The notes beneath the pieces were generated by a model that was not told the DNA's origin, ran no database searches, and saw nothing but the letters and a program-made list of their open reading frames with translations. The translations under genes were made by a program, and so were the position numbers. Below, piece by piece: positions 3,267-64,000 of a DNA stretch of 64,000 nucleotides (within the stretch, counting starts at the first letter, position 1; each line of letters begins with the position of its first letter). Source of the DNA: Ostreococcus lucimarinus (Eukaryota); the NCBI GenBank assembly GCA_000092065.1, contig CP000584.1; one strand, given 5' to 3'.

Positions 3267-3273
3267 CGTCGCG

Positions 3274-12084: not shown

Positions 12085-12198
12085 TCAAACGCGCGCGCAA
12101 CGCGATAAAACAATCATTTGAATTTGATATTACACCCGCCGTGTCAGTCAGCCGCCGCGCGAGGCGCCCTCGCTCGGCGCCGTCCTCGACGACCGCCT

Positions 12199-24500: not shown

Positions 24501-24512
24501 CGTAGCCTTTAA
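15588..24512 (+). CDS. BEACH domain protein (neurobeachin/LRBA/LvsA-like), 2974 aa
   Basis: The BEACH core reads STFDYLMALNVFAGRTLHDLSQYPVFPWVL...LRKPVGALNEERL...PPFHYGSHYSSSPIVLFFLLRLEPYT...ELIPEFYY. An upstream ConA/LamG-like segment is present (GYTVSMWFRIERF...EWTFLTIVH). A PH-like region lies before BEACH and WD40 repeats follow at the C-terminus (VTGSRDTTLAIWE, ASGSIDGTLILHD). Confidence 0.95.
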   Translation: MNFIRRFANSSNPTLDARDATPPSTSAPDAAGARVELRSAETIDVPRVMNSMFDEGRDGDLVFSWQLMSGTANAGESSRREATNAFFDAFSETYARWEPARARGADEGDDSDVGCAVAHPRAVTLAAVEDAAGLGERLERALTGTVDVGGIEQRMASIGVETFRALEIMSRSAHNRVFMEQCGASRALANACKTCAQRMLTFSAGAASASKENSIEAGALLEALQHVVEHAVNVIDSFLGDAWALRSFNENGALLALIEVLRAEKVVVGRVHGDVRKMAISIERMAMRAIGRVMHGDAAVQKSIAGAGGLDIFFEGVYPIEADVSVDIAGFETSLMNLEISHTLLAGNKSNVERAQGIGLFTRVARLMRAANDLSETLVSDEASTSTTEGEVAGVPWSAQLLDDSLRCHEVIITDGYPSEVIKRLLKFVHQDTSAAGGWASKGAREMILKCLFDSIIEACSSSKESFKSDSECVRFRAHVLRFFSDAIDIDPAVLRVMRQARAWDMLLDADTYGAIPSVDHKNEYESVSESTTSILRRRVQIQTAALLLKACQIAAELSDCVDECNVLIGTITTRAIQPSVAIRLCRVLELLLIDSSHSVCKALSEVEAPGRLAGALNAQLKCWGCDQVAFIGEVGATANSAAFGSTLSALRACLNGPDVLAASALNNDGVSDLIFNELLWTNTTRDLAISAVVSLVGLRLHAPSPHASGAHREAWSSVARRFIQALPRARGTDITLLSAMLSGLRQMLNNPNGSGDSLREWISSEDGAEFVQIVALCDGDAGEEVGLDVIATLQAVISNSHSSASTFERSVGYDTLIDAIQCARGAGPVSKPLFDALMSFVIDDDYGTGGESSGIALRNAKALQMLLTLIGNLGASDELKDELLKAFKQMLSASVTSKATADAAGVLDFCLQWYVDANRRQAVLEVIALCSSFSMSTKHVRQIFRLLQGDSISADDQLQLLRVLQHSAKRVGPSTFFDFTGPGCGIHVNKQLTLPVRNGYTVSMWFRIERFPEYGGPVPLFSLLSGAGNGILGELHANKLTLGIRGSTGTVDTASIDITVRENEWTFLTIVHLPVRMSQPLVRVFLDAGMVGQAKLRYPIKSTEAISYCRIASVTFDVSLENAHVKVSPFFGQLGSTHIFDDALSQPAIAMIHALGADYVGRFKSTESQTERILQAISVNAVEARDTREYLADHRLISISAVTVAGRSAQSEVYDVNEYDLIGGAKVCVTNSVKDVVHCLGGVQVVLPIFSDILHAAETSKRRQIVCEGVHLLVALLDGSRLNQVTLTLCDGYALIANLLRENATTLLCPDLLPALDRLRRAGGIEHESASARIVVDLHLWSLADDATQKAHGEYLLSLATKHSDGLRFHLPTSDLIDALDFTPGASGTSRRRVLLDVLKQLVIDAPNQMIEETAETIVHVIEECADEDTVGDVLRWLVNCMQPGEEVQPTLYQAFTKLGGPLLALSPLSRSSRRVRSFALLWLANLMPPLEASSKSSGGASHISAAFGAAAGALTATLGGKFTATASQDFEVGFFTAVANALEKFPLDIAESRSALFELLLGGQALPAEKVAERLNREKNSSVRAAAGRLFAKVTGHGNDAQTKDKECISVGVPGIVNAGAAGVLLRLMNSSDNAEMRLSVLELLLQLVEGASVNAQAVLEQRGWQTWILPILKDHSDETQNDEKSMARRLITALLSHAVLKTDEGHQHVSNMLGVIDILIKRGVLADESDLAQELLSDLLECILPTRASSSEQDEWSEVQNVESPICRRNLSRLLHIFDSIISDTSATAAALGVPSASDAKSSVKKISWRFYDNLWNLLDAISPPGHPVDAPEETADAVKSTNMAQKLHRRAKSMIRDLPFSSNSESEFDSVEAVEALRKTCQRMGFRLTLLYVRASALEELQTALNTCIGLLPSFLAPVLVDKDGKAMDTAPLGNRAHLFIADLMRYVEFAKKSEDPDASTRSQLVVNLVRLASEVGRLLLSDCASVEECAHLDGRDLISEQKVAAAAAIEAKESRKVKELRSKVSENFLSERTRHEQRQAQAETALLETHKSKLGPVSERERARRAMQRLTFEERCDVLARRWSAMLRDLQGERGAWAAENCDAKAHWKLDKSEDSSMRRSRLKRDYKFVQYEDNQKGGESTLQSDVQDIQAVRLVGMGQKWKMNSDSDYVDVDDVADELAEKLAVDKENAMHNRSKVVFSTPASLVTLTRTVLGKLNVSRDAVVFAADRTHESAKDHRKRFWRWSLSEIVEVHHMRYRLQHKAFEMHCADHTSAFFAFDTKKTARYAATRVASSAGATLMNRRAKTEAAERAKELWRRQKLSTFDYLMALNVFAGRTLHDLSQYPVFPWVLKEYEAETIDLADPSVYRDLRKPVGALNEERLKNFVERYKSLLDDPDTPPFHYGSHYSSSPIVLFFLLRLEPYTKLARALQGDRFDRADRLFHSVAETFKACVESSADVKELIPEFYYSSEFLTNTNGLKLGVRQDGSTIDDVVLPPWAKGSRHEFTRVMRESLESDYVSENLHHWVDLIFGHAQRGAAAVERCNVFYYLTYEGAVDIDTLEDDDQRNAIETQIINFGQTPAQIFRRAHPVRLPPQATEHVVSISPESLKLATVVSSESNGLPMRAQAVVHATAYDSRIAVVTAGRMVSIQRLQRPGTTFGLGGVDHSTAYALEPETTSRLMLEIDVDADSLAHSQSVNVALKGKVLLSVGHWDRSMRIFDIEEGREMQRISAHRDVTTCLALCELGSSRSWDEASHQMDQVIVVTGSRDTTLAIWEMVLPQGGWGFSKGTKVLSAEPKMICFGHDEAITCVAVNSSLNLVASGSIDGTLILHDSRDGHIVRALESTPPGCIPSSIELLPKSSLVVCACGVAGALSVHDVNGATLAKSLSRHEAFDAFCVTRDERHILIGNRRGDITVRAVHDLSIRAQINVANAGVVSISPVARDECLVVGLADGRVCLWAPAARSL

Positions 24513-28090: not shown

Positions 28091-31000
28091 TCATCGCGCG
28101 GCGTTCAGGTAAAGTCTGTATTGCTCGCGTCGGCGCTCTTCAATTTGTTCTTGACCGCGACGACGGTACTCTTTGAGATCGCGGCACCTGGGCACGGGGC
28201 AGTCGTCCTCCATGCATCCCTTAGAATGAATTTGCAACAGCGTCCACGTTTTACGGCAGAGCTGGCACCCGCCTGCTGATTTGACCGTGCAGCTCAAGGC
28301 GTGCTTGAGCAAGTGTTTGATTTTCGGGCAGTTGCTGTTTTCGCATCGTTCTTTGCGGCATTTGCACGCGTGGAGCAAGAGTTCCATGGTTCGCTCGATC
28401 TGCGCCGCGCGGTTCTCGCGCTCGGCTTGAGACAACGCCGTGCGATCTCCGGCGGTACGACCTTGTCGCATGAGGGGGTGCTGGTGACCAGTTCTGATGC
28501 GGCAGTTGTCGCAAATATCGAAATCGGGGCACGTCTCGCAGCGCCAACCCTTTCCGGGCTCGAGCTCGCGTGAACAAACGTTGCATGATGCGACGAATGC
28601 AGGCTCAGATGGATTGTTCAAGTGATACAGCACCATCATGGTCGTATGTTTGGCGCGACGAAGCGAGTCGAACTGGAAGTGATTGCCTTGGCACAAGGAC
28701 AGGAACGCTTGACGTGTGTCAAAGAATTCGCTCTCGAGCTTTTCCTCCTCGTCCTTCTGTTCCTTCGTCAGCGTGGGAATTTCCTCACACTTTTCGCACT
28801 CGAGCTTGCGGCCAGCGTAACGTTTTTCGTTCTCTGGCATCGCATCTTCAGTCTCCTTGCATTCTTCGCAAAGCACCAAGGGTGTGCCTTCCGTCGCGTA
28901 ATAGCGGTTGGCACCGGCGATGGTTCTGCGGCAGCACAAACATTGGTGCGCAAGATGGGCGAGCATGAAGTCGTTTCTCATGTTGCTGATCGTCGTCCCG
29001 AGCTTCTTCATTAGTTCTTTATTCAGTTCAGCGTCAGCGGCGATCGTGCCACTCTTTGCCTTGGCCGCCTTGCGCGCGCTGATCTTAACCGTGGACGACT
29101 TTGTCTTCGCCTCGATGTTCTTTGCCTCCTCGAGTTCCTTCATGATGGTCGGTATCCAATCTTCCGCAATGCCGGAGAAGTAATCACCATCGAAATACGG
29201 ATACTCAGTGGCGCATCGAATATCGTGATTTTGATTGCCGAGTCGGAATTCATCGTACACGTTCGAAGTTGAAATGACGATGCCATCCTTCTGCGCCGAG
29301 CGCAACATCTTGAGGTACCACTCACGAAGCTTGTCAGCCTTTGGCGTCTTTTGCACCTTGGGGTGACAGTACAGAATGTAATCGTCTCCTTGGAACGGCG
29401 GACACGCCCAAATAAAGCACGACGTGAAGCCGCGCTGTTTGACATAGTCCAGGTACGCAATCAGAATGTTGTGATAGACGTACGTGCGCAACGCGCAGTT
29501 TTCGCCCGTGGCCACGGTGACGTTGTCCGGTCGGAAGTACTTGACAGAGTCCAAATACGAGAGGTAAATTCTTCGCCGGTTCGGTTCAGGGCACTCGTCA
29601 TCATACTCTTGCACATAAATAGCCATCAAACACACATCGGTGGCCTCAAGCTTTTGGAACAGGAGGATGACGCGCGAACGGTAAGTAAAGTGCGCCGGAA
29701 TGCCCTGTTCTTTGAAGTGGGCGTAGTAGTGCGGCTTGGTGTCCATTTGTTTGAGTGTTTGAGACACAACACGAATGGTCAAGTTCTCAGCGGTCGGGAC
29801 GTTTTCTATGGGTACGCCCAACTGCTTCGCGCGCTCCACGCGTTCCGCCGAGAGCTTCGACGCGAGGCGTTCTTCCAAAAACGTCGACATCTTTGTCTTC
29901 GGTAACGAGCTCGCCGGCTGTTGTGAAGACGGACGTTCAGCAGTAACTTGACGTTCGTTCTTATCCAACTGCGATAAGATGCAGTTTGGACACGTGAATG
30001 GCGCTTCACCGCCTTCATTGCGTCTACCGTTGAAAAGAACGCAGAGTTGGTGATACCAATCCTCGCAGTAGTCGCATTGCACCCATGGCTCCTCGAGATC
30101 GTCGTCGTTCTTCTTCTTGATGAGCGTCGCTTTCGGAAACCGTTGACCCTCGACATCGACATACCCTTGGATGGCGTTGAAGCACGGGTTACACCACGCA
30201 TCTCTTCGAGTCTCGCCCCCGAGGCTAGGCATCTGGTGGAATACTTGTCCGCGCTTGATGCGACCGACGCAACTGTAGCAGTAAAGCGGCGGTGGTTCGA
30301 ACGTCAATCGTTCAACGCCGCATGCACGGCACGAACTTTCTGTCGCGTTGATCACCGCCCGCTCAGCTTCCTTCTGAAGCTGACGAGCGCTCGGTTGACC
30401 TTGACCTTGCACCTTTTCCTTGTCGGCGAGACGCAAGGCGGCGAGATGCGTACGGATTTCTTCCGGAGTGAAGCACTCCATTAACGACGTCCCTTCGCCA
30501 CCTGGCTTGCGATCCGTTTTCAAACCGCTCGTACCCTTCACCATGAGTTGACCACGATCGAGATCGTGATCGAGCTTCATTCTCTTGTTGCCGTGCGCCA
30601 TTTGCATTTGCGCCTGTTGACGCTGCTTGAGCATGGCGTTGCGCACGGGACCGCACACCGGACACCCAGCGTCCTTGCACGTCTGATGATGCTTCAACAA
30701 CTCACGCGACGCCAAACATCGAGGATAGTTGCACTGCGTCAGCGTACACTTCAACACGTGCTCCCACAACTGCTTCGCGACGTGACAGTGCGGCGTGTAG
30801 GGGCAGTGCCCGTGTCGCGCCTGACACTTGCTCGCGTGTCGAAGGAAGAGAAGCCATCGTTGCTGTTTCACGATGTACGCCTTTCGTAACTGCTCGTCAT
30901 TGATGTCTCGCCAATTAGCAACGACACCACCCCCACCACTACCCGGTTGCTGGCGCCCGCGCATCGCCGCCTGTTGCTGTTGGGCCATCTGTTGCTGTTG

Positions 31001-31940
31001 CGCGAGCTGCTTCGCCTGCGCCGCCTGCTGCGCCTTGGTGAGCTTTTTACCCTTCGGCGGCGCCTTAGCTCGTCCCTTGGGCGCCGCCGCCGTCGCTGCC
31101 TCAGGCATCATCGAACCCACACCCTGCGTCGGAATCATCGTCCCAGGTGGCACGCCGGCCATCATTTGCGAAGATCCTCCCGCGTATTGCGATCCTTGCG
31201 CCGCCGCCGCGCCGCGCAAAATCGGCGCCCCATTCGGTAACATACCGTTACCCCCCATCATCTGTCCCGCCGCGGGTTGCGCCATATTCCCCCCTAATCC
31301 CCCTGGGAACAACGCTCCCATCTGCTGACGCGAAGCCGCCGCAGCGCTCCCGCCTCCTCTTCCGCCCTGTTGCGCGCCTTGACGAGAAATCATGATGCGC
31401 GCGACGGCTTGAAGTCGCGCCTCCAACGTCGCCTTGTCGCAATACTCATCCTACGATCGCAAAAACACCCCCACAATCCAACCGTCAGTCCTCGAACGTC
31501 ATCACCCGCGCGCGCGCGCGCCTCAACCGCCTCGTTCGTCGCGCGCGCCGATCGAAACCGCGCACCTTGCTCCGCGCTCCGCGATACACCGCCTCCTCCA
31601 ATCGCAGCACAAAGTCCGGTAGCTTGTGTTTCCACTCGTTCGTCAATTCCGGTTTCCTTTGTTTAAACACTCGCAATCTGCGCACCGTTCGCGCGTCCAC
31701 GCCGTCGTCAGTCGTCCCTTCGCCTGAGCGCGCGTTCGCGCGCGTCTTCGCGACCTAAGCCTCGTCCGCGAGATCCGCGTTCGCGCCTCCCCCCCCCGCG
31801 TCGCCTCGCGCGCCGTTCGCCTTCGCGACGCACATGTGTTGAATCAGAATCTTCCTCTGCGGGATGTCGTCGTCCGATTGCCACGTGCGCCACGAGTGCT
31901 TCGCCCCCCCGCCGTCGCTCGCGCCGTTCGCGCCCGGCAT
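28091..31940 (-). CDS. HAC: Histone acetyltransferase of the CBP/p300 (plant HAC) family; 3 exons (31940..31834, 31677..31566, 31450..28091)
   Basis: TAZ1 is RWLLFLRHASKCQ...CPVCGPV and the PHD finger is WVQCDYCEDWYHQLCV...FTCPNC. The KAT11 core reads YLSYLDSVKYFRP...RTYVYHNILIAYLDYVKQRGFTSCFIWACPP.QGDDYILYCHP. Two ZZ fingers and TAZ2 (LLLHACKCRKERCENSNCPKIKHLLKHALSC) follow. Two 5' mini-exons, found by splice signals, encode a KIX-like domain. Confidence 0.9.
31451..31565 (-). other. Spliceosomal intron (GT-AG, 115 nt, phase 0), HAC intron 2
   Basis: Minus-strand donor ...AGC AAG|GTGCGCGGT (GT at 31565-31564). Branch-like GAGGACTGACGGT. Acceptor TCGTAG| (AG at 31452-31451). The junction joins ...YRGARSK to DEYCDKATLEARLQ. 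Confidence 0.75.
31678..31833 (-). other. Spliceosomal intron (GT-AG, 156 nt, phase 2), HAC intron 1
   Basis: Donor ...CAA CAC AT|GTGCGTCGC (GT at 31833-31832). Branch-like GACGACTGACGAC. Acceptor GTGCGCAG|A (AG at 31679-31678). AT+A makes an Ile codon, giving ...RKILIQH-I-LRVFKQRKPE. Confidence 0.7.
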
Positions 31941-34650: not shown

Positions 34651-35026
34651 ACGCGCGATGTCGCGCAAGCGACCGCGCGCGACGCGCGATACGAGCGACG
34701 ACGACGCGCATCTCTCGACGGTGGTTCAAAAATCATCTTTGCAAACGGCGCGCGCGACGACGCGAAACGGCGCGAAGCGGGCGCGACGAGACGCGACGGG
34801 ACGAAAAGTGCGCGCGCGGGGGAAGTCGTCGACGGCGCCGTTGGCGCTGGCGGTGACGCACGATCGCGTGCGGACGCTGGAGGTGCGATGATTAGACGAT
34901 TGGGATGGGCGTTCGAGGCGACGGCGGCGCGCGGGTGCCCGGTTTGACGCGAGAGAACGCGCGCGCGCGAAGAGACTGACGAAGGCGCGCTGGCGTCGAG
35001 ATCGCGGACAGGAGCTAGTGGAGGAG

Positions 35027-38000
35027 ATGTGCGCGCGAAGCGGGCGACCGCAGCCGGTGTTGCGGAGGGTTGGGGACGAGGGCGCGTACGCGAACGCGCT
35101 GTTACGATCGACGTACGCGTTCGCGCCGGATTCTGCGCCAACGTTTTCGGGTAGAGGAGGCGAGCGTAGGGGTGGTGTGATGGATACCGTGCGCGCAGCG
35201 ATCGAGCATTCATTTCGCGCGTCGGCGAATCCGCGGAATGTGTTGTGTAAGGGGATGTGCCGACGCGTTGAGCGACGTGACGGCGGCGTTCGAGGCGCGC
35301 TTTTGAGCGGTTCGACAGAGGTGAGCGTGCGGTGCTCGACGAGCGCGTACGAGGCGTTCAAGTCACCGGTATGGGAAACATTTTGTGATAGAGTGGGAGA
35401 CGACATGTTTCTGCACATTTTATTGTACTGCAGCGTGTTTGTGAGAGTCGGTACGGACAGAGACACGCCGTTGTTGCAGATTTGTGGCTACCCGATGAAT
35501 GACTCCTCGCGCAAGCGGGCCATAACGACCGCGATGGCTACGAGTAAGACGCGAGCGGGAATTCGACGCGAACGGAGGGCGCGAAAGCGACGCCAAGATG
35601 AAGAGGCGGCAGAGAATTGCGCGTTGGAGACCGATTCCACCATGCTTGAGTCGAAGTGCATGTCCGAAAAGCCGCTCACCGCGAACCCATTCATTTCGCA
35701 CATCGACGTGAAGGAAGTCATTCGATTGAGCGACGTCTATCGTTGTTCACAAGATGTCTCAGTCGACGGGGATGGCGAGACTAGTGGACTGACGAGCGAG
35801 GAGGTGACTTTGTCGCCTGCCTCGACGGAATATCTGCAAACGTCGAGAAAGCGCTCGAAGTCGTACAGAAAGCCGAGTTGGCTTCGTAAGCGTGAAGCGC
35901 GGCTGAACTCAACGCATGCTCAGAGTTTGCGGACGCGAGAAGTGAAGCAAATGACCGCCGGCAACATCGTGAATCGACAAAAGAATGCGAGTTTGGGTAA
36001 CGAGGTGAAACTTGCTGACGAGGTCTTCGATCGAGGGGTGTTCATGTTTCGTTCAAGCTTCACGAAGAAACCAGGCTTGCCGGCGACGCATACTCTGCGA
36101 TCGATCGGCTTGGGCGTCCGCGCATCAAGGCGCCTTTACCTGACGATATTTAAGGCAAAAAAGCTTACGAAGGCTACATCGAAGCACAAGACAGATCGCG
36201 CTTTGCGGCAGGCAAAGAGTACGTATAGAATTCCGCAAAAGCACCGCGACACACTTTTACCGACGTTGCGGGCGATGTTGGACAAGGTTCGATGTTGCCC
36301 ATTCACGAACATCCTCAACAAGCACGCTCCCATGCCGCGTGAGCTAATGGTCTCCACGAAACGAGTCGGTGAATTGAGTCAAGCGTCGCTGTTATCTGCG
36401 TATACGGCACCACGAAGAGTAGCCGCCTTTGTTTGGGAAGTCATTGAGCGCCTCGTGCCCGTCGAACTCTTGGGGTCGGTCCAAACACGAAAAAGCCTGT
36501 ACGGTTGCATTCGCCGAATTGTGTCGTTGCGAAGATACGAGCGGTTTACTTTGCATGAAGTCATGCAAGGCATCCGAACGGCAGACTTCAAGTGTTTCAA
36601 GGCGAAAACGACCAATGCGAGTAACGCAGGACAGGTGGAGGCGAGTCAGCGGAGAATGGTCACCAAATGGATCAGCTGGCTCGTGCAAGAGATGGTCTTC
36701 CCAATCATACGATGTCATTTCTACGCCACGGATACGCAAACACACAAAAATAGGATATTCTTTTACCGGAAAGGGATTTGGTCTCGGCTCGTCACCGCCA
36801 CACTACAAAGCTTGGAAGAAACGTCGTTCAAGCGCCTCACGGCGAAGGAAGTGACAGCGATGATGGATAGATCGAATGCGTCCAACTTGGGGTTTTCGAA
36901 CATGCGATTTTTACCGAAAGGCTCGGGGTTACGACCTCTAGCGACGCTGAACAAACCGACGACCTTTGTCGTCAAGGGCGGCGGGAAGAATTCAATGCGG
37001 TGGTTGAAGAAATTCGATGCGATAAACAGACGGTTGAAAGACGTGCAGGATATTCTCCACCACGAGACAGTTCGAGATCCGAACGTCTTAGGCGCAGCCG
37101 TCGGAGATTATAAGGCGGCTCTTCTTCGTCTTGGACCGTGTCTACGCGCGATTCGTCGCCAAAAGTTACTTGGACGGCGTCCTCAGGCGTACATTCTCGC
37201 GACTGACATTAAAGGCGCTTTCGATAATCTTCCGCTCGAATCTCTCGAGCGCGTGGCCTTGGACCTAATCTCAAGCTCATCATATCAAACGCTTCATTAT
37301 GCCGTCGTGAAACAAAACGGTGAGGCAAAATATAAAAAGTTGGTGTCTTCCCTTCCGACCGCGGCGAAAGGCGAAAGAGTGCCGGGACCTCTCGTGACTG
37401 AAGCGCAGCGCGTTTCGAACACCGGCGGTGCGGCGATTCTTGGTAGAGAGAGCAGAAACTCGATCGTCATTGACGCAGGATTCGCTAAGGAAATTTCCGA
37501 TGAAAACATAGTGCCGTTATTGCGCGCACATCTACGAGAAAACATCATCTCTGCGCGCGGCAAGTTCTTGTTACAAACCGTCGGAATCCCGCAGGGTTCG
37601 ATTGTATCTCCGCTTTTGTGCAGCCTATTTTACGGCCACCTCGAACACGAGTATGGATTATTGAGCGGTTTCTGTGGCGAGCAATCAACCGTGTGTCGAT
37701 GGATGGACGACATGCTTCTCGTCACCACCGATCTTGATCGGGCCAAAGCGTTCGTCGACATGTGTAAGAAAGGTTTCGAGGCGCACGGCTGCACTCTAAA
37801 CACCACAAAAACGCTTTCAAACTTCGACCACGGAGAAGACGTACGACAAAGGACATTTGTGAACGCGGATGGGCGAAGTTACATCCCGTGGTGCGGTATA
37901 TTAATCGATTGCCTAACGCTAGAAATAATGGTGGACTACTCGAGGTACTCGGGAGAATTCGTTCGAGAGTCGATGAATCTACCGCTCGGGCGCAAGGCGT

Positions 38001-38497
38001 GGACGCGTCTACCCGAACGCATTTGTGGCTTTTTGAAGCCAAAATGTGCGGCTATATTTTTCGACGAGAGTATCAACAGCAAAGTCACCGTGCGCGTCAA
38101 CGTCTACCAGCTCTTCCTCATGGCGGCGATGAAAACACACAGCTACGTCGCTGCGACGAGCGCGATTCCGGGATGCGAGCAAATCTCATCGCTTGCACTT
38201 TATCGCGCGATCAAGCACGCCGTTCGTTTCGGACAAATATTGATACAGCGTCAGAGTAGCAGCGCGCGCGCGCACTGCAGTAGCGTCGGGAGACTGCCGG
38301 ACTCGCACGTTGAATTTCTCGCTATCCAAGCCTTCTTGAAAGTCCTTCAACAAAAGCAGACGCGATACAAGCGAGTAATTCAGCTATTGAACTCGCGACT
38401 CACCTCACAAGGCATGAAACGAACGTGCAGAAACGGTCTGCTCACACAAGCGATGGAACCATCGCGAAACACGATTTTCACACATATTAGATTTTAG
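35027..38497 (+). CDS. TERT: Telomerase reverse transcriptase
   Basis: The T motif is FYATDTQTHKNRIFFYRKGIWSRL. RT motifs are LRFLPKGSGLRPLA (1/2), ATDIKGAFDNLP (A), LLQTVGIPQGSIVSPLLCSLFY (B'), RWMDDMLLVTTD (C), GCTLNTTKT (D) and WCGILID (E). A long N-terminal TEN/TRBD-like region is present. ATG at 35027; the track start at 35018 is a GTG. Confidence 0.9.
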   Translation: MCARSGRPQPVLRRVGDEGAYANALLRSTYAFAPDSAPTFSGRGGERRGGVMDTVRAAIEHSFRASANPRNVLCKGMCRRVERRDGGVRGALLSGSTEVSVRCSTSAYEAFKSPVWETFCDRVGDDMFLHILLYCSVFVRVGTDRDTPLLQICGYPMNDSSRKRAITTAMATSKTRAGIRRERRARKRRQDEEAAENCALETDSTMLESKCMSEKPLTANPFISHIDVKEVIRLSDVYRCSQDVSVDGDGETSGLTSEEVTLSPASTEYLQTSRKRSKSYRKPSWLRKREARLNSTHAQSLRTREVKQMTAGNIVNRQKNASLGNEVKLADEVFDRGVFMFRSSFTKKPGLPATHTLRSIGLGVRASRRLYLTIFKAKKLTKATSKHKTDRALRQAKSTYRIPQKHRDTLLPTLRAMLDKVRCCPFTNILNKHAPMPRELMVSTKRVGELSQASLLSAYTAPRRVAAFVWEVIERLVPVELLGSVQTRKSLYGCIRRIVSLRRYERFTLHEVMQGIRTADFKCFKAKTTNASNAGQVEASQRRMVTKWISWLVQEMVFPIIRCHFYATDTQTHKNRIFFYRKGIWSRLVTATLQSLEETSFKRLTAKEVTAMMDRSNASNLGFSNMRFLPKGSGLRPLATLNKPTTFVVKGGGKNSMRWLKKFDAINRRLKDVQDILHHETVRDPNVLGAAVGDYKAALLRLGPCLRAIRRQKLLGRRPQAYILATDIKGAFDNLPLESLERVALDLISSSSYQTLHYAVVKQNGEAKYKKLVSSLPTAAKGERVPGPLVTEAQRVSNTGGAAILGRESRNSIVIDAGFAKEISDENIVPLLRAHLRENIISARGKFLLQTVGIPQGSIVSPLLCSLFYGHLEHEYGLLSGFCGEQSTVCRWMDDMLLVTTDLDRAKAFVDMCKKGFEAHGCTLNTTKTLSNFDHGEDVRQRTFVNADGRSYIPWCGILIDCLTLEIMVDYSRYSGEFVRESMNLPLGRKAWTRLPERICGFLKPKCAAIFFDESINSKVTVRVNVYQLFLMAAMKTHSYVAATSAIPGCEQISSLALYRAIKHAVRFGQILIQRQSSSARAHCSSVGRLPDSHVEFLAIQAFLKVLQQKQTRYKRVIQLLNSRLTSQGMKRTCRNGLLTQAMEPSRNTIFTHIRF

Positions 38498-48424: not shown

Positions 48425-50392
48425 ATGGACGGTCGGCGTCTCGCGCCGGCGGACGCGCGCGAGGCGCGCGAGACGGCGGACGCGCGCGAGACGGCGTGGA
48501 AGGTGGACGTGCGCGCGCTCGAGCGAGAGGCGCGTCGACGGCGCGCGACGGACGCGCGCGGAGGCGCGGACGCGGACGACGCGGACGCGGGCGACGACGG
48601 TGGGAAGGCGGGACGCGCGACGCCGTTGGCGGTGGTGTGTCAGGACGTGCGGTACGAGGTGAGGGATCGTAAGACGGGCGCGACGACGCGGTTGCTGGAC
48701 GACGTCAGCGCGGTGTTTCCTCCGGGGGGGGCGTCGGCGCTCATGGGTCCGTCGGGGGCGGGGAAGACGACGCTGCTGGACGTCATGAGCGGGAGGAAGA
48801 CGCAGGGACGCTTGCGCGGGCGCGTCGTCGTCGGTGCCGAGCCGGCGACGAAGGCGGCGTTGAAGACGTGCGCGGCGTACGTCGAGCAGTTTGATTGCTT
48901 GCTCGCGTCGTTGACGGTGCGAGAAACGTTGATGTATCAAGCCGAGTTAAAGCGAGGCGCGGAAGGTTTCGACGCCAAGGCGCGCGAGGAGCAAGTGAAT
49001 CGATTGATCGAAGACTTGCAGTTGGAAAAGTGCGCCGACGTCGTCGTCGGCAGCGCTTTGTCGCGAGGGATTTCCGGCGGGCAAGCAAAGCGCACGAACA
49101 TCGGCATAAGTTTGGTCACTCGTCCTCGTATTTTGTTCTTGGACGAGCCCACGAGCGGATTGGATTCGAAAACTTCGTACGATTTGATGCGAGTCATTCG
49201 AAAATTTTGCGACACCGCCGGAGTCACGGTCATCGCCACCATTCACTCGCCGAGCTCGGAGGCGTTTCGTCAATTCGATCGTCTGTTGATGCTGAAGAAT
49301 GGCAAAGTCACCTACGCGGGTCCATTATTCGGCGAAGAGGGCGCAGAGACGTACTTTTATTCGCTCGGGTTTTACTTTGATCCGAACGATAACTTTGCGG
49401 ATTTCTTAATCGCCACCGCGGGCGACGATTCGACGGATTTTGCCAGAGAGTTTACGGCGAGTTTTCATCACAAGCGTAATCGCGACGAAGTGCGCAAGTA
49501 CGTGCGAGAAGTGGTGAATCGGCGGGAAGCAGGCGACACGCGATCTCTGCTGCTCGCAAACGCCCCAAAACCTGTCGGTTTTGCGAGCGCCGTGCGCACG
49601 CTGTTAAAGTACCGCACGTCTCGAAATTACCGCGACGCGCAATTCGTCGGCGCGCGCTGCGCCGGGCACCTCATATTCGCCGCCGTCATGGCGACCATGT
49701 ACGCGGGCCAAGGAAAGGTCATGTCACTCGACGCCCAAATCAACGTCTCTAACATGCTGTTTATGAACAACGTCCTCCCCGCGTTCGCTGCGAGTGGATA
49801 CTTGCCTTCAATCTTGATGGAACGCCCACTTCTGTACCGCGAGCTCGACGACGGATGTTACCCACTCTTGGCGTACATCGCGTACAAAATCATCGAAGAA
49901 GCACTCGTGGCGCTCATTGTCTCACTCGTTGCGACTGCGATCTTATACAACGCCGCAGGTCTGCGAGGCAACTTCTTCGTCGATTGGCTCGCGTACTTTG
50001 GCATGCAACAATGCGGCGGCGCCGTCGCCTACCTCTGCGCCGCCGTCGCCCGCGACGTCGACGCCGCCAACGCCATCTTACCCGTGTACAACGTCCTTCA
50101 GGTCCTTTTCGCCGGTGTTTTACTCAACATCAACGACGTCCCGCGCGCTTGGACCTGGTGGCCACCGACGTTATTCGTTCGATACGGCTGGAAGGCGCAA
50201 ATGCTCAACCACTTCGCTCGCGTCGAGCCTCCCGTCTTTCTCGCCGACGACGGCTCCCTCGTCGGCGTCACCTCGTATTACGACGTCACCGGCACGACGT
50301 CGTCTAATCTCGGTTTCGTGTACTTGCTCTGGGCGTGTTGGCTCGTCGTCGCCGCCGTCTGCACCGCGAGCGTGCGCCACCAAAATCGTTAG
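48425..50392 (+). CDS. ABC transporter, G subfamily half-transporter (NBD-TMD, white/brown-complex type)
   Basis: Walker A is LMGPSGAGKTTLLDVMSG, the signature is ISGGQAKRTNIG and Walker B is ILFLDEPTSGLD. An H-loop (ATIHSPS) and a C-terminal ABC-2 type membrane domain follow. Confidence 0.9.
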   Translation: MDGRRLAPADAREARETADARETAWKVDVRALEREARRRRATDARGGADADDADAGDDGGKAGRATPLAVVCQDVRYEVRDRKTGATTRLLDDVSAVFPPGGASALMGPSGAGKTTLLDVMSGRKTQGRLRGRVVVGAEPATKAALKTCAAYVEQFDCLLASLTVRETLMYQAELKRGAEGFDAKAREEQVNRLIEDLQLEKCADVVVGSALSRGISGGQAKRTNIGISLVTRPRILFLDEPTSGLDSKTSYDLMRVIRKFCDTAGVTVIATIHSPSSEAFRQFDRLLMLKNGKVTYAGPLFGEEGAETYFYSLGFYFDPNDNFADFLIATAGDDSTDFAREFTASFHHKRNRDEVRKYVREVVNRREAGDTRSLLLANAPKPVGFASAVRTLLKYRTSRNYRDAQFVGARCAGHLIFAAVMATMYAGQGKVMSLDAQINVSNMLFMNNVLPAFAASGYLPSILMERPLLYRELDDGCYPLLAYIAYKIIEEALVALIVSLVATAILYNAAGLRGNFFVDWLAYFGMQQCGGAVAYLCAAVARDVDAANAILPVYNVLQVLFAGVLLNINDVPRAWTWWPPTLFVRYGWKAQMLNHFARVEPPVFLADDGSLVGVTSYYDVTGTTSSNLGFVYLLWACWLVVAAVCTASVRHQNR

Positions 50393-58999: not shown

Positions 59000-59329
59000 G
59001 CGTCGCGCGAGCGCCGTGCGCGCGCGTGTGCGCGGCGCGCGCGGCGCGCGCGCGCGTAACGACTCGAGACCCGGGAGTCGGGCATCGGCGCGCGGTCCGA
59101 CCGACCGCCGAGCCGAGTCATCAACTCAATCCATCGCGGCGAACCAGGATGCGCCGCCTGCACTCGTCGCCGCGCGCGCCGACGCCGACGAAGCGTAGCG
59201 AACGTCGTGAACGTCGTTAACGTCGCGCTCCGCGCCCCCGCGCGCCGTCGTCGCGGCCCCGGTTCGACGTCGCGACGCGCGACGCGCGCGAACAGTTGAC
59301 GGTTAAGAAAAAGTCGCGCTTTGGCGGCG

Positions 59330-62300
59330 ATGCGCGCCCGGTTCGCGCGCGGCGCGTCGATGTCGGCGCTTCTGCTCGCGCTGTGCGCTTTGGCGTCGCT
59401 CTTAGGCGTCGCTCGGGGCGGTGGTTCGCCGTCGCCGTCCCCCGTGCACTGTTCGGCGAGGTGGATCGACGTCAACAAAGGGGGCTGCCCAAGCTGCGGA
59501 CCAGGCACGTATAGTAAGCGATACCAAATCGATCGCGATCCCGCGTACGATGGACGACGGTGTCCTCATGTCAACGGGCATGTGTCTTATGGACATGATT
59601 GCGAGGCACCGCCATGTCCGCCGCCGCCGCCATCGCCGCCGCCGCCGTCGCCACCGCCGCCGCCGCCGGGACAGTTTGTTCCCGTGCAGGTATCCATCAA
59701 CGATCCCGTGCCGAGAGTGTCAGATGCGTACGACTTTCACATTCTCACCTCACATCCTTCGTGCGATTCACAAAACGATTGTTTTGAGAGTCACATCGAG
59801 ACGGACGTGAGCGAGCATCACGTCGGACTCAGGTGCGACGTCACCGTGCAAAAGAAGGACCAAGTTTGTGCGACATTCGGTCGTCACATGCCTTGCAGGC
59901 TGTGGAATGACTTTTATCCAACAACTTTAACCCTCACGGATGAGCATGGTGACATCGTCGAAGGCGATTACGTCATTGAGTATGAATGCTACTTTGAACT
60001 CGCAAACGGCGAGCTCGTACCTGAGCCGACCAAGGTGAAGAAGACGCTGCACGAGTTCAGCGTATCCAAAGGGTGCGATTTGAAAATGAATTTGAATCGA
60101 GATTCCAAAGCAGAGCTCGCGGCGTATCTCCTCAGTGGCGCCGATGAATTCAATATCGCTGACTGCTCGAGTTTGAAGAGTATTTACGCCGCGAAGGAGG
60201 CCGTGTTCCGTATTTTCGATTCAAACCCGACAGATGGCCGACTCGATCACGAAGAAATCCTCATCGGTGTTGAGGCACACAGCATGGATACACAGATAGT
60301 GAATCATTGGAAGGACATCGTCGACGCTGAGGGTGGCGATGGACTGTTCCTCACACTTTCGAACTTCATGTCGGCAGACATCGCGCCTCGCGGTTGTCAA
60401 TCCGGCGCCGGTGACGTCGTGACGTTCACGGAGGCGACGTATCCAACGAGTGATCCTGGACGTGAAACGGGATCCAGGCAATGCGGAGAGATGGCGGGAT
60501 CTATGAAGACCACGTGGTCGTTTCCTCGATCAATGCAACTCGGCGATTGGTCGTGCGTATACATCGACGGGCTTTTGTACAGTCAATTGCTCGCCCAAAC
60601 GAGCCGAAACGCCGTATCGATGCAGAACAGCGTGACAGATATTCGCCCTGTCATTGGCTCTTTTCATGATGCAGAGCAATCTCTCGCTGCGCATTTCACG
60701 TTCGCAGGCGTGTCAAACGCAAGGCTGATTTCTTCAGAATCGCCGCGGGCGGATGGCCAAGAAGTGGTTCCAACCCTCTCCATCGATGATACGTATACAG
60801 GTAGTCTGCGAGTCTTCACGGCTTCTCAACACGGTAAACACGGGGCGTGCCTGAACAGCTGCCAAGGTTGTACCTTCCATTCGTACAAGTACATTGGGGA
60901 ACCGTTCAAGAATGATTTTGCCGTGTCGATGCAAATATTCATTCCTACACAGCTTTCGAGCAATTCTGGCTTTCGGAAGAAGTCGGAACCTCTCATGAGC
61001 TTCACTTCAGATGCATCTGGTAGTATGCAGCACAGCATCAAGTTACGATTGGGCACGGCACTCTCGAAGTTTTCACTTCAATTTATACATGAAAAAGTAA
61101 ACAGCGTGACGGGTCATCGAGATGAGCTATCAGAGCCCATTCCTCTGGGTGCGTTTGGACGCTGGACGTCAATTGGATTTTCTTTCCACCCAAAAGATGG
61201 TCTCACGTTGTACAGGTTCAGCGTTGAGGGAGGTAGGGTAACACATGAAATCAAGGTGCCGAGCAATAACGATGAGTGGAAATCGAGACTGCGAGACACG
61301 TTGCATTTGATGCACCGTCGTGAATTTTTCAAAGAGAACCGAATAGAATACGACGATCTTCGCGTGTACACTGGCCGAGTAAAGAACAACACATTCATAG
61401 ACGCGTATAAGTGCGACGCGTTGGGTGCTCAGTGTGCACCTCGAGCACACGCAACGCCAAACTCACGTCGCGTCGTATGTGTCATGCTGGATGTCCACGA
61501 CAGTAGTGGAGGAGACGCCCGTGCGCCGTATTCCTGCACCGGTGCCCTGTACTACGACGGCGGCGCCATTGAAGTGCGCGCGAAAATGGATCTCACTGGA
61601 GTCGCATTCGAATTCCGCGACACGGCTTGGCACGAATCATCTTTTGAAATCTTGCGACGCACGCACGATCCAAGTGGCGATAACGCGTTTGATACAGTCG
61701 TACTCGTTGACGGTGGTTTGAACGGCTGTGCGTCGATGTTTTCGTCGATTACGTATCTCGACCGAGAGGCTGGTCAGCAGCCCAACTCTCGCTGGCAGTA
61801 CAAGATCAAAACAAAGACGGACGATGTCGATGTAAGCTTTTTGTCGCTCACTACTCATTTTAAAACGCCTTGGATTGGTCAAATTGTGGGCGAAGTGATG
61901 GCCGGTAAGTCGGTTGTTCCTGTTGGCGAAGTCCGCATTTGCGCAGACTTCGTGAAGCCCAACGGTACTTTTCTGATGTATCGCAGTCACAATCACTCTA
62001 ATCTGGCTTTGCACATGCCCGTCGTTCACACATCTAATCTCACTATCTCAGCAGAACAACAGGCGCATCGAGCTACGGACGGCTTACACTTGAAGCCTGA
62101 CTCGATTCGTGTCGCAAGAGGACAGTATTTGCGCGTCAACCTCGACTATTGGAGCGCAATACAAGAGGTCGAAGTGTGCACCGCAACCGGAGAGAACAAT
62201 TTCAGAACTTTCGTGCGGGAGTTCGATCCGGGATACTCTGTGAATCACGGTCACGAGTGCAAATTACGAGAAACTAACGCAACCCAAACTTTCAGCGCAT

Positions 62301-64000
62301 CGCGCGTGACTTGCTTCTTCTTCACCTGTCGGGGCTCAAAGCTTACGACATTGCATGGTCAGTTCGTAACCGCAGCCGTCGAAGAAGGCGACGACGTGAG
62401 AATGACGCAAATTCGTGTTGTTGGTCAGCGTGGCAGATGCACGTTCACGGCGATAAGTGATGACGATGGGCGCTATGCAATCGATGTACTCGATCGCTCC
62501 GGGAACGTCCCCGTCAAGGCGAATATGCTCATCGGCGCGTATAAGGAAGAAGTTTTTGGTGAAGAATTCGAAGTTCCCCTCCTGGATACGAGCGATTCAG
62601 ATGGCGATGATGATTCGCTAAACGTTCCGACGCGAGTGTTACTCGTACTTCGTCGAAAGAACAGTTCGCTTGCGGCGCGTCTCGGGCATGAAGTCCCGGA
62701 TTACAGCAGCTCCTACTACGACGGCGAAACGCATCAGTATCTGGATCAACATGGATATAGTCCACCGTATGGCAGCTCCTACTACGACGGCGAAACGCAT
62801 CAGTATCCGGATCAACATGGATACAGTCCACCGTTCGGCAACACGCCATATGTGCACACTATTTACGATAACGCCTACGATTCAGGCGTTCCTGCCGCCA
62901 AAGTAGAGTTCCAAAGTTTGACGAATTTACGTCTGGAAAACACAACTCTTATGAAGAAAGATGGAGTTGCTGATGGTTGGAATGCAGGGGGGTCCTCGAA
63001 TCAGTCAATGTTTAATGTCACGGGTCGTTTTACTGGAATGGACGCGGTTGAGGGTATCAGGGTCGAATGCTCCTGCGATGATGGCGAATATGTCGTTGGT
63101 TTGAGCTACGCAGAGCACATAGCTAACTTTTCCAAAGCAGCGACCGAATTTGCCATTCACTGTCGTGGTAAAGGCTATGAGCCAGCCATCATTTCAGGTG
63201 GTCGCTCTTACGCAAATTCAAATAACTATCGGATGGCCATGGAGACGAGACCATCGCATCACATGACGGATCTATACGATGTGTACCAGTCAACTGACAT
63301 CACATCTTCGCCACCCATCTCCACGGCGAATGATTTCTCATATGCAGCAGCGCAGAGGCGACTACTGGCTCCAACGAGTTCGTACCCTGCAAGAAGCCCG
63401 ACGTCAAACGAGTATCCAACGACGAGCCCGACGCCAAGCAGTCAATTATTGAACTCTTATCCTCAGTCGTATGATGCGCAAACGAATGAGTATCCTCAGT
63501 CGTATGATGCGACGACGTCTACTTATTTTCCACCCTACCACATCGATGACTATCTCGATCGAGGCTATCGTTCAAACATGTGTATGAAGAAGACATTCAC
63601 CATTAAACTTACACGCAGTGGGCGTGTTTTGTTTTATGAAACGCAAGGCCATTGGCTGTACGATCATCCGGTGCAGCATGAAAATTTTCACCATACTCAG
63701 ACGTGGCAAACTGGTGGACAGTCGCCGCCGTACGGCTACACGGAGCAAACGCCACCGTACGGCTACGCGGAGCAAACGCCGCCGTACTCTGCGCGCGACA
63801 AGTCTTCCCTGGGCGCACATGCCGACGTTTCGCACACGGGCCAAGCTTTGCATGAGTACCATGAACCTGCTCAACTCATAGTACCGGTCGCGTACGCAGA
63901 AAGAGCACACAGCCCCTTGTTTGTGCGAATGGTGGTAATTTCACAAAATGTGACGCTGAGCGACGCCGACATACGTTGGACAGTGCCGACTCCCTCACCG
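59330..64000 (+). CDS. Giant secreted multidomain protein, 5' 1557 codons (3' end beyond the window); NOT in the supplied ORF track
   Basis: I translated frame 2 codon by codon. There is no stop from the TGA at 59297-59299 to nt 64000, and the ATG is at 59330. The signal peptide is MRARFARGASMSALLLALCALASLLGVARG. A Cys-rich TSP1-like module follows (CSARW...CPSCGPGTYSKRY...CP...CEAPPCP), then a PPPPPSPPPPSPPPPPP hinge and a LamG/ConA-like segment. The last 1.3 kb carries Tyr/Pro-rich tandem repeats. Confidence 0.85.
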   Translation, partial: MRARFARGASMSALLLALCALASLLGVARGGGSPSPSPVHCSARWIDVNKGGCPSCGPGTYSKRYQIDRDPAYDGRRCPHVNGHVSYGHDCEAPPCPPPPPSPPPPSPPPPPPGQFVPVQVSINDPVPRVSDAYDFHILTSHPSCDSQNDCFESHIETDVSEHHVGLRCDVTVQKKDQVCATFGRHMPCRLWNDFYPTTLTLTDEHGDIVEGDYVIEYECYFELANGELVPEPTKVKKTLHEFSVSKGCDLKMNLNRDSKAELAAYLLSGADEFNIADCSSLKSIYAAKEAVFRIFDSNPTDGRLDHEEILIGVEAHSMDTQIVNHWKDIVDAEGGDGLFLTLSNFMSADIAPRGCQSGAGDVVTFTEATYPTSDPGRETGSRQCGEMAGSMKTTWSFPRSMQLGDWSCVYIDGLLYSQLLAQTSRNAVSMQNSVTDIRPVIGSFHDAEQSLAAHFTFAGVSNARLISSESPRADGQEVVPTLSIDDTYTGSLRVFTASQHGKHGACLNSCQGCTFHSYKYIGEPFKNDFAVSMQIFIPTQLSSNSGFRKKSEPLMSFTSDASGSMQHSIKLRLGTALSKFSLQFIHEKVNSVTGHRDELSEPIPLGAFGRWTSIGFSFHPKDGLTLYRFSVEGGRVTHEIKVPSNNDEWKSRLRDTLHLMHRREFFKENRIEYDDLRVYTGRVKNNTFIDAYKCDALGAQCAPRAHATPNSRRVVCVMLDVHDSSGGDARAPYSCTGALYYDGGAIEVRAKMDLTGVAFEFRDTAWHESSFEILRRTHDPSGDNAFDTVVLVDGGLNGCASMFSSITYLDREAGQQPNSRWQYKIKTKTDDVDVSFLSLTTHFKTPWIGQIVGEVMAGKSVVPVGEVRICADFVKPNGTFLMYRSHNHSNLALHMPVVHTSNLTISAEQQAHRATDGLHLKPDSIRVARGQYLRVNLDYWSAIQEVEVCTATGENNFRTFVREFDPGYSVNHGHECKLRETNATQTFSASRVTCFFFTCRGSKLTTLHGQFVTAAVEEGDDVRMTQIRVVGQRGRCTFTAISDDDGRYAIDVLDRSGNVPVKANMLIGAYKEEVFGEEFEVPLLDTSDSDGDDDSLNVPTRVLLVLRRKNSSLAARLGHEVPDYSSSYYDGETHQYLDQHGYSPPYGSSYYDGETHQYPDQHGYSPPFGNTPYVHTIYDNAYDSGVPAAKVEFQSLTNLRLENTTLMKKDGVADGWNAGGSSNQSMFNVTGRFTGMDAVEGIRVECSCDDGEYVVGLSYAEHIANFSKAATEFAIHCRGKGYEPAIISGGRSYANSNNYRMAMETRPSHHMTDLYDVYQSTDITSSPPISTANDFSYAAAQRRLLAPTSSYPARSPTSNEYPTTSPTPSSQLLNSYPQSYDAQTNEYPQSYDATTSTYFPPYHIDDYLDRGYRSNMCMKKTFTIKLTRSGRVLFYETQGHWLYDHPVQHENFHHTQTWQTGGQSPPYGYTEQTPPYGYAEQTPPYSARDKSSLGAHADVSHTGQALHEYHEPAQLIVPVAYAERAHSPLFVRMVVISQNVTLSDADIRWTVPTPSP
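62708..62839 (+). repeat. In-frame 66-bp tandem duplication (SSYYDGETHQY[L/P]DQHGYSPP[Y/F]G x2)
   Basis: Copies at 62708-62773 and 62774-62839 differ at 4 positions (ctg/ccg, tat/tac, tat/ttc). The mirrored peptides in track ORFs 62529..62849(-) and 62670..62906(+) reflect the same repeat. Confidence 0.95.
63458..63511 (+). repeat. 21-bp motif repeated at 33-bp period (TATCCTCAGTCGTATGATGCG; YPQSYDA x2)
   Basis: Exact copies at 63458-63478 and 63491-63511 within the giant ORF. Confidence 0.9.
63725..63787 (+). repeat. 27-bp in-frame tandem repeat (PPYGY[T/A]EQT x2 plus partial)
   Basis: The sequence is ccgccgtacggctacacggagcaaacg / ccaccgtacggctacgcggagcaaacg / ccgccgtac. It generates reiterated PPY (PPxY-like) motifs. 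Confidence 0.9.

Follow-up and report, generated by a model that had tools for sequence, protein, structure and literature searches.

The right-hand end of the 64,000-nucleotide (nt) stretch of Ostreococcus lucimarinus DNA analysed here (contig CP000584.1 of assembly GCA_000092065.1, hereinafter the window) raises the question whether the long run of codons in frame 2 that starts with an ATG at nt 59330 and reaches the last nucleotide of the window is a gene and, if it is, what kind of protein this gene encodes. Translation of nt 59297-64000 gave the same result as the preliminary description of this DNA, namely, 1,557 sense codons and no stops after an in-frame TGA; the open stretch 59300-64000 ranks as the second longest within the window. 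Across the same 4.67 kb, the other frames contain 48, 73, 38, 65 and 66 stops, and the chance of an open run this long, estimated from these stop counts (~3.7% stops per codon), is ~1e-25. This open reading frame (ORF) is missing from the ORF list of the window because the list omits ORFs that run off the source sequence, an explanation that had been proposed beforehand and that agrees with the list's own description. In four independent metagenome alleles, the frame is kept open for at least 3,219-3,223 codons, without the in-frame stop that the preliminary description had named as a possible refutation. Compared with an ortholog from a metagenome contig (L016; 77% amino acid identity), the synonymous (dS) and non-synonymous (dN) divergences are 0.32 and 0.12, respectively, so that dN/dS is 0.36, with a range of 0.09-0.56 along the protein; the gene is therefore under purifying selection, at the level that is usual for fast-evolving extracellular proteins. 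We conclude that the ORF is a real, intact and constrained gene. The two protein clusters that contain its product include no gene model from NCBI or UniRef although the neighbouring genes do have such models, and the gene seems to have been missed by annotation.

Metagenome gene calls for the continued ORF on syntenic marine contigs are 4,018, 4,010 and 4,009 amino acids (aa) long. The 4,018-aa sequence is a join of one allele (L011) that gives aa 1-3223 in a single open frame and a 99% identical one (P0078) that gives the C-terminal rest, and this length is possibly off by one residue owing to an indel between the alleles; the window holds the 5' 39% of the single-exon, 12.06-kb gene. Three shorter calls (3,460, 3,461 and 2,841 aa) were considered as frameshifted pseudogene alleles and rejected inasmuch as they reflect scaffold N gaps at an indel hotspot; the only genuine frameshift is a 1-nt deletion in one allele (L012), which yields a 3,297+369-aa call. 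The 4,018 residues contain exactly two hydrophobic segments, aa 8-31 and aa 3965-3995, the second of which is followed by KKR, and this layout predicts a type I membrane protein whose ectodomain measures ~3,935 aa and whose cytosolic tail, ~30 aa long, ends in YGSSL. The first segment, the sole hydrophobic one at the N-terminus, corresponds to the signal peptide that had been recognized earlier; its cleavage site, between ARG and GG, is placed by the -3/-1 rule, and a possible alternative start at M11 (ATG 59360) would give a more conventional signal peptide than ATG 59330. Thus, the notion of a giant secreted or surface protein is borne out by the length of 4,018 aa, the signal peptide and the one transmembrane (TM) helix, whereas the proposed Tyr/Pro/Ser-rich tail turned out to be an internal linker, after which another 2,460 aa follow to the TM anchor. 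From the N-terminus, the signal peptide is followed by a six-Cys module, a Pro/Ser-rich hinge (hinge 1), a Cys-rich head (aa ~134-1080) and linkers (aa ~1100-1556) and, beyond aa 1556, by hinge 2, a module of ~170 aa, hinge 3, an EF-hand loop, a large core, the TM helix and the tail; 24 N-x-S/T sites were counted in the protein.

The protein is a member of a family of giant surface proteins, as yet uncharacterised, from Mamiellophyceae-type picoalgae. A word-based search for homologs was swamped by poly-proline words, and a hinge-free rerun added only two fragments (P0085 and P0086). By contrast, an exhaustive HMMER search with a hinge-free profile of the head (A1) detected 161 clusters at E<=1e-3, 36 of these at E<=1e-30, including giants of 2,846-3,847 aa, of which four (P0148, P0149, P0150 and P0152) span the whole head profile whereas the best stretch of another one (P0153) spans about its second half. 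For the part of the protein that lies beyond the window, homologs of 1,885-2,310 aa with 29-40% identity were found, among them an 'unnamed protein product' of Bathycoccus prasinos (CAL6314626.1). We consider this protein and its companion entry CAL6313423.1 (2,310 aa), together with P0079-P0083 and P0148-P0153, to be true homologs, with 33% identity in the first head module (N1) and 27-35% in the core. The giants share a common layout that consists of a signal peptide, a Cys/W-x-x-W module, the head, usually an EF-hand, the core, a TM helix and a tail with the ending YG[AS][TSV][VL] (YG[AS][TSV][VLI] across P0078-P0084 and P0148-P0153), and the O. lucimarinus protein has the signal peptide, the single C-terminal TM helix and the short YG tail by which membership was judged. 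The Bathycoccus and metagenomic relatives share with it a Pro/Ser hinge, the EF-like loop and the motifs WATVP.DGLVYTVVHDPPGG, RFGTP.F..GGRS.CPGE and YEVRVKNFC, in addition to the single TM helix and a tail ending in YG..[VLI]. These relatives, none of which is characterised, differ from the O. lucimarinus protein in their N-terminal modules; they are shorter and lack an O. lucimarinus-specific insert of ~750 aa (aa ~1100-1812) made up of the Tyr/Pro/Ser linkers, the two long hinges and one additional module. The O. lucimarinus protein looks like the family core with an added head and a lineage-specific linker/hinge region of ~750 aa.

No Pfam domain was detected at 1e-3 in the three giants scanned (P0148, P0149 and P0152), no functional name is attached to any family member that was read, and literature searches found no paper that describes this family. 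The paralogs lie among nuclear genes, and searches of the IMG/VR viral contigs and of 185,579 prokaryotic species, each represented by one genome, turned up no relatives. In agreement with the preliminary description, no recognised family emerged from the Pfam scan of the 1,556 in-window residues that it had called for (nothing at E<=1); its suggestion of novelty stands in that the family is unnamed and uncharacterised, but not in the sense of a lone orphan, given the 161 clusters and the NCBI entry from Bathycoccus. Three observations on other members can be added. The contig of one paralog (P0079; L018) carries at 10604-15810, ~4.8 kb downstream, a further gene of great length (2,028 aa or more) whose sole match, to a PAN domain, is weak, and giant putative surface proteins may cluster. 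The ~700 C-terminal residues of P0153 (3,847 aa) that precede the TM helix contain, by eye, ephrin-receptor/TNFR-like Cys-rich repeats. A gene with faint Ephrin_rec_like matches adjoins P0083 on contig L017.

The conserved core, aa ~2063-3820 (~1,900 aa), was read from L011 and P0078, outside the window. An alignment of seven core sequences, which are 31-40% identical to the first one, contains 17 invariant Cys and the invariant motifs WATVP.DGLVY.VVHDPPG, GDVILGGG, RFGTP.F..GGRS.CPGE and YEVRVKNFC. Tandem domains that resemble beta-sandwiches lie towards the C-terminal end of the core and beyond it, to aa ~3,920. The AlphaFold model of the core has a mean predicted confidence (pLDDT) of 41.6, and a Foldseek search with it gave no match at E<=1e-3, only weak Ig-like ones.

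Similarity to known extracellular domains has different levels of support (the coordinates of all features are collected in the table). Searches of PDB sequences returned proline-run noise only. The six-Cys module is probably a divergent thrombospondin type 1 repeat (TSR), as had been suggested: the TSP1_spondin profile matches aa 31-97 of the O. lucimarinus protein (E=0.008, 16.9 bits; curated cut-off 41), and comparable matches were obtained for P0002 (TSP1, 16.2 bits) and P0149 (TSP_1, 16.2 bits; cut-off 21.6), all at E ~0.008-0.013, with P0149 matching all three TSP1 models below threshold. At the same position, the relatives display W-x-x-W (GSWGSY, GEWGDW, GEWSGW) and C-x2-CG, and the window protein has CPSCGPG and a single Trp (ARWIDV). 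The six Cys and the motifs of the relatives speak for the assignment but all profile scores for the TSR (PF00090, PF19028 and PF19030) are below the curated cut-offs, so membership is not established.

The verdict on the EF-hand-like loop is similarly mixed. The motif KE..FR..D..P.DG.L...E is kept in at least 7 of the 9 family members, and predicted helices flank DSNPTDGRLDHEE (H168-181 and H193-202 of the modelled segment, pLDDT <50); on the other side, the pattern D-x-N-P-x-D-G-x-L-x3-E has 13 residues, one beyond the canonical 12, and DSNPTDGRLDHEE does not reach the cut-off of the EF-hand models (PF00036, PF13405 and PF13499), with Pfam E-values of 0.13-0.19 in a single member. A second loop, DDDGDGVLSEIE, located outside the window at aa ~1859-1882, appears canonical by eye; it scores 16.9 bits with EF-hand_7 (cut-off 30), and the paralogs have precomputed PF00036/PF13405 matches. 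The Pfam scan of the 1,667 residues that follow the window returned only sub-threshold EF-hand matches.

At the level of fold, and judging by a model, the head contains a jelly roll of the ConA/laminin-G type. In the AlphaFold model of aa 115-1100 (mean pLDDT 40), the usable region, aa ~524-674 with pLDDT 56-79, is a multi-strand beta-sandwich, and nearly all Foldseek matches at probability >=0.9 are ConA-like jelly rolls, in particular, the clostridial toxin Hc, GH16, congerin, calreticulin and CBM40. The LamG/ConA-type region of the preliminary description is thus supported by the fold search; by contrast, every test at the sequence level failed, that is, five head homologs showed no match to Laminin_G_3 or related Pfam models at E<=10, hhalign against the Laminin_G_3 domain of the BEACH protein encoded in the window gave a probability of 4.7% over 27 columns, and a PDB profile search with the head yielded nothing relevant. 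Inside this region lies the indel hotspot, with the variants IPTQLSSNSGFRKK, IPNPKQLSSNSGFWEK and IPKQLSSN--, all in-frame; N gaps fall exactly at the hotspot in 5 of 11 metagenome scaffolds, and heterogeneity of the population at this site appears to defeat assemblers. Downstream, a Cys-containing sub-domain (aa ~700-875), which has the lowest dN/dS along the protein (0.09), recurs in many proteins of other architectures (mapped to window aa 709-~860), and in Pfam the carriers show nothing but weak signals of CarboxypepD_reg and of ephrin-receptor/TNFR-like Cys repeats, both of an extracellular type. Altogether, 19 Cys of the head are kept in at least 7 of the 9 family members, in line with the further Cys-containing modules noticed before.

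Table. Features of the giant-protein gene and its upstream border within the 64,000-nt window
Feature	Position (nt)	Strand	Basis or remark
GAGTCA, 6-bp direct repeat present at both edges of the present/absent segment (microhomology or target-site duplication)	59115..59120	+	junctions of window, L010 and L015
Present/absent segment, in-window part (gene and 209 nt upstream)	59121..64000	+	L010 alignment
In-frame TGA before the ORF	59297..59299	+	translation
Stop-free ORF, aa 1-1557 of the 4,018-aa protein; gene leaves the window	59330..64000	+	translation, stop counts
Signal peptide, aa 1-30	59330..59419	+	Arg-rich n-region, hydrophobic core SALLLALCALASLLGV, then ARG/GG
Six-Cys module (probable divergent TSR), aa 41-96	59450..59617	+	TSP1_spondin, sub-threshold
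Pro/Ser hinge 1, aa 97-113, PPPPSPPPPSPPPPPPP, extensin-like	59618..59668	+	TRF, (CCG)17
Head module N1, aa 134-458, 33% identical to Bathycoccus CAL6314626.1	59729..60703	+	BLASTP map, conserved Cys and motifs
EF-hand-like loop DSNPTDGRLDHEE, aa 297-309	60218..60256	+	family-conserved motif
Putative ConA-like/laminin-G-like beta-sandwich, aa ~510-690	60857..61399	+	
Indel hotspot of the beta-sandwich region, aa ~540-552	60947..60983	+	three in-frame length variants and a 1-nt deletion (L012)
Conserved Cys sub-domain, aa ~700-875, CAPRAHATPNSRRVVC...FRDTAW.ESSFE...YLDREAG	61427..61954	+	profile positions 565-725
Head module N3, aa 928-1077, common to P0083 and other giants	62111..62560	+	homolog comparison
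66-nt x2 tandem repeat, SSYYDGETHQY.DQHGYSPP.G, Tyr/Pro/Ser-rich internal linker	62706..62834	+	TRF
27-nt x2.4 tandem repeat, EQTPPYGY	63723..63787	+	TRF
Pro/Ser hinge 2, first residues, cut by the window edge	63986..64000	+	translation, full-length alleles

The (P/S)n hinge of the preliminary description is confirmed by the (CCG)17 array that encodes hinge 1, which is 17-18 residues long among the alleles. In the full-length alleles, hinge 2 has 55-56 residues (aa 1557-1611) and hinge 3 has 29 (aa 1784-1812); S-P(3-8) runs, the mark of extensins and other hydroxyproline-rich glycoproteins (HRGPs), are found in all three hinges. The Tyr/Pro/Ser-rich linkers are interspersed with small globular islands. 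The number of copies of the 22-aa YYDGETHQY repeat appears to depend on the allele, with four exact copies in L007 compared to two in the window, an observation that is confounded by scaffold gaps and point differences. A possible relationship of aa 1190-1556 to aa 1612-1783 as a diverged repeat was rejected (z=1.9, not significant), and self-BLAST of the 4,018-aa sequence at 1e-3 revealed no internal repeats.

What, then, could such a molecule do? The mechanism that we consider reasonably probable, judging from the predicted type I topology and the modelled head, is that of an adhesion or recognition receptor of the Ca2+-dependent, lectin type on the surface of a wall-less cell, because a putative ligand-binding head would be displayed on an anchored protein. 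The core and the TM helix would anchor the molecule. Stiff glycosylated Pro/Ser rods are well established for extensins and the HRGPs of Chlamydomonas, and the proline-rich segments of the giant protein, probably hydroxylated and O-glycosylated as in the HRGPs of the green lineage, would by analogy serve as stiff spacers. The variable head, held off the membrane, would then bind a carbohydrate or a protein in dependence on Ca2+, as LG/LNS domains, pentraxins and CBM40 do; candidate sources of the ligand are other cells, gametes, particles, grazers and viruses. The roles named in the preliminary description, namely, adhesion, gamete recognition and virus reception, are at this point speculative.

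Known systems offer partial parallels. In the laminin-G/LNS receptors (neurexins, perlecan and the LG domains of laminin), pentraxins and CBM40, the resemblance is confined to the head, and the giant protein has neither sequence-level membership in these families nor EGF modules, the remainder being unrelated. The adhesins with TSRs, such as thrombospondin, spondin and ADAMTS or the apicomplexan TRAP/MIC2, are similar in the N-terminal six-Cys module with the C-x2-CG-x-G...R/K spacing, in the type I membrane topology with a short tail and, as far as the relatives of the giant protein are concerned, in the W-x-x-W; unlike these adhesins, the giant protein keeps one Trp, and the TSP1 scores are 16-17 bits, against cut-offs of 21.6-41. 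The third parallel is with the Chlamydomonas sexual agglutinins SAG1/SAD1 and other HRGPs and extensins, which combine giant size (>3,400 aa), S-P(n) segments that would form stiff glycosylated rods and globular heads on the green-algal surface; in contrast to SAG1/SAD1, the rods of the giant protein are short (17, 56 and 29 residues), and it is TM-anchored and not known to be similar to them in sequence.

Several points weigh against a receptor of this kind. The gene and the protein are known here from sequence alone, the window copy is read only to nt 64000 and the remainder comes from metagenome alleles. All sequence matches to LamG, TSP1 and EF-hand are below the curated thresholds; the two AlphaFold models are, taken as a whole, of poor quality (mean pLDDT 40 and 42), and the fold call comes from a single region of ~150 residues, for which Foldseek gives no aligned query residues. 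For the ~1,900-aa core, the most conserved and presumably central part, no fold or sequence match was found. Furthermore, high ratios of non-synonymous to synonymous polymorphism (pN/pS) could mean relaxed constraint, and the gene cannot be essential, given that one lineage does without it.

The alternative that survives best, unlikely as it seems to us, is that the protein forms a non-specific structural coat, a glycocalyx component with a mechanical, anti-grazing or anti-fouling role and no particular ligand. The great size of the ectodomain, the extensin-like hinges, the 24 N-x-S/T sites and the Tyr-rich linkers, which might cross-link, are what one would expect of such a coat, and the weak codon bias (G+C content at third codon positions, GC3, of 0.56), the moderate constraint and the dispensability of the gene fit as well. 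However, a fold of a ligand-binding type, EF-like loops and 36 Cys positions are kept across a divergent family, and the ~1,900-aa core is strongly conserved; this conservation of fold, loops, Cys and core therefore points to a specific structure and function rather than filler.

The dispensability follows from a natural null allele. A metagenome contig with 98.6% identical flanks, from a ~1.4%-divergent lineage (L010), follows the window as far as nt 59120 and picks up again 157 nt past the stop codon of the gene as found in L015, beside a NosD-like beta-helix gene that normally lies downstream, so that a segment of ~12.4 kb consisting of the gene, 209 nt upstream and 157 nt downstream is missing. 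The gene is present on at least 13 contigs and absent on this one only; a scan of JGI metagenomes with the shared left-junction 20-mer found three relevant contigs, all filled. The gene is, thus, dispensable in nature, and the polymorphism reflects either a deletion or an insertion of the segment. In addition to the 6-bp repeat at the edges, a 10-mer, CCCGGGAGTC, is found at window positions 59071-59080, ~40 nt to the left of the left edge, and again at the right edge (L015, 6116-6125); this repeat, which extends GAGTCA, may offer a clue to the mechanism by which the segment disappeared or arrived. Among the alleles that carry the gene, pN/pS within the population is 0.4-1.3, a range derived from small counts (14 synonymous and 41 non-synonymous polymorphic codons). 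At the nucleotide level, alleles are 99.4-99.7% identical within the gene, compared to 99.7-99.8% in the flanks, so the gene is somewhat more diverse than the flanks without being hypervariable.

These population features are the sole, circumstantial support for the proposal that the protein interacts with viruses, as an attachment receptor for prasinoviruses, a decoy or a shield, with its polymorphism and diversity maintained by virus-driven selection, a scenario that we deem rather unlikely. It would account for the exposure of a giant protein with a lectin-like head at the cell surface, for the clean absence of the 12.4-kb segment from one natural lineage, and for the pN/pS of 0.4-1.3 along with the in-frame indel and repeat variation; moreover, the receptor for Ostreococcus prasinoviruses has not yet been identified (PMC5082852), and, in Bathycoccus, an arms race with viruses has been discussed for dispensable cassettes of low GC that have fixed borders and lack Pfam domains (Vannier et al. 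2016, PMC5128809). The segment described here resembles those cassettes in being present or absent with fixed borders on a regular chromosome, in its lower GC and in the lack of a Pfam domain, but they are mostly short and are discussed as de novo-like (PMC5128809) whereas here we are dealing with a single, old and constrained 12-kb gene. Against a viral connection, the gene resides among the housekeeping genes of a regular chromosome, away from the 'immunity' outlier chromosome; only one of at least 13 contigs, from the ~1.4%-divergent lineage, has the empty allele, so balanced polymorphism is not established, and the nucleotide diversity is barely above that of the flanks.

We consider it improbable that the protein is a sexual recognition molecule, a functional analogue of the Chlamydomonas agglutinins acting in gamete adhesion. 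SAG1/SAD1 reportedly are giant hydroxyproline-rich agglutinins with rods and globular heads, which the 4,018-aa length, the Pro/Ser rods and the globular heads of the O. lucimarinus protein bring to mind, and the head modules do vary between the family members. Yet the protein is TM-anchored whereas agglutinins are extrinsic, and hinges of 17, 56 and 29 residues are short compared to the agglutinin shaft. A candidate mating-type locus is said to reside in the low-GC part of the big outlier chromosome, and the gene lies away from it, in an ordinary context; a literature search found no paper on this subject in Mamiellophyceae.

It is even less probable, indeed very hard to credit, that the gene, instead of being an old nuclear one, was acquired recently from a virus or a bacterium as a foreign or mobile cassette. 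What suggests such an origin is the drop of GC from ~0.65 to ~0.51 at the ORF, the clean indel that includes the gene's own flanks and has the 6-bp direct repeat at its edges, and the unrelated upstream context of the ortholog L016, in which the similarity to the window starts at ~59151, ~30 nt inside the segment boundary. The GC3 of the gene, 0.56, is indeed lower than that of its highly biased neighbours (0.75-0.79), but comparable values are found in the genes for the BEACH protein (0.58), an AMP-binding protein (0.60) and telomerase reverse transcriptase (TERT; 0.61), and in the paralogs at other loci (0.52-0.62). Low GC was therefore rejected as a sign of foreign origin, and the drop is most simply explained by the weak codon bias of long, probably weakly expressed nuclear genes; in addition, the family members lie among nuclear genes, one of them in Bathycoccus, the searches of IMG/VR and of the 185,579 prokaryotic genomes found no relatives, and the segment lacks terminal inverted repeats and a transposase. 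As separate observations on L016, its 257-nt upstream flank is of low GC and unrelated to the window, and its last ~117 nt (3125-3241) diverge from the window, with the ORF stopping early (…VVLVEYLVVV*), owing either to truncation of this copy or to a chimeric end of the contig.

Finally, the reading of the ORF as spurious or as a decaying pseudogene is effectively refuted despite the missing protein model in the NCBI/UniRef clusters, the 1-nt frameshift in L012 and the pN/pS of ~1 for some pairs of alleles, given the chance probability of the frame, its integrity over 12 kb in several alleles, the dN/dS of 0.36 that falls to 0.09 in one segment, the conservation of homologs down to 29% identity and the scaffold N gaps that account for most of the apparent interruptions.

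The surroundings of the gene are those of an ordinary nuclear locus. One neighbour, an ABCG transporter (48425-50389), has the same sequence as XP_001417300.1 of O. lucimarinus CCE9901, and the adjoining malic enzyme is also in NCBI; the other genes in the window encode AMP-binding/ankyrin, TIG-domain, TPR and BEACH/neurobeachin proteins, a CBP/p300-type acetyltransferase, TERT, desaturases, adenylate kinase, a gamma-tubulin complex protein, a sigma-70-type factor and a CCT-domain protein. The gene order of the window is repeated on many marine metagenome contigs, with the malic enzyme indexed in 241 blocks. The longest ORF of the window (15588-24512, + strand; 2,974 aa) contains Beach, PH_BEACH, DUF4704 and Laminin_G_3 domains and a WD40 propeller; it was considered as a paralog of the giant surface protein and dismissed as a BEACH/neurobeachin protein without significant similarity to it. 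Two other long genes, those for the CBP/p300-type histone acetyltransferase (28091-31426, - strand; KAT11, TAZ, ZZ and PHD; GC3 0.66) and TERT (35018-38497, + strand; GC3 0.61), have a lowered GC3 and, therefore, support the rule that long genes of O. lucimarinus show weak codon bias. Another structural variant was noticed nearby: two metagenome contigs (L020, 10456-11559, and L022, 6817-7920) carry, at the position corresponding to window ~54.7-54.9 kb, an extra 367-aa Gly_transporter gene, between a 183-aa ORF and a 318-aa Gly_transporter gene.

Ostreococcus is the smallest free-living eukaryote, with a genome of ~13 Mb and genes that average little over 1 kb, so a 12-kb single-exon gene for a surface protein of 4,018 aa is a large investment in a compact genome. 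A methodological implication is that ORF and gene tracks from which run-off genes or very long ones with low GC3 are left out can overlook some of the largest genes of compact algal genomes. What is new here is not a new kind of system but an uncharacterised family, built in part from known types of extracellular fold and in part from a large core without detectable relatives. Prasinovirus attachment, grazer recognition and mating, the latter never observed, all would take place at the Ostreococcus surface, and we know of no receptor for any of them. Judging from its predicted architecture, the giant protein is a candidate surface-recognition molecule, and the family, with variable lectin-like heads on an anchored core, ~160 metagenome clusters and at least one natural null allele, provides a concrete list of candidates. 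Conceivably, if quite doubtfully, this family is the main recognition layer of the wall-less Mamiellophyceae, with the O. lucimarinus member serving as an attachment target for prasinoviruses or as a gamete agglutinin. Should this be the case, the presence/absence of the gene, the in-frame indel hotspot and the high pN/pS would be the footprints of an ongoing arms race at the cell surface that is played out not on the known 'immunity' chromosome but on an ordinary one.

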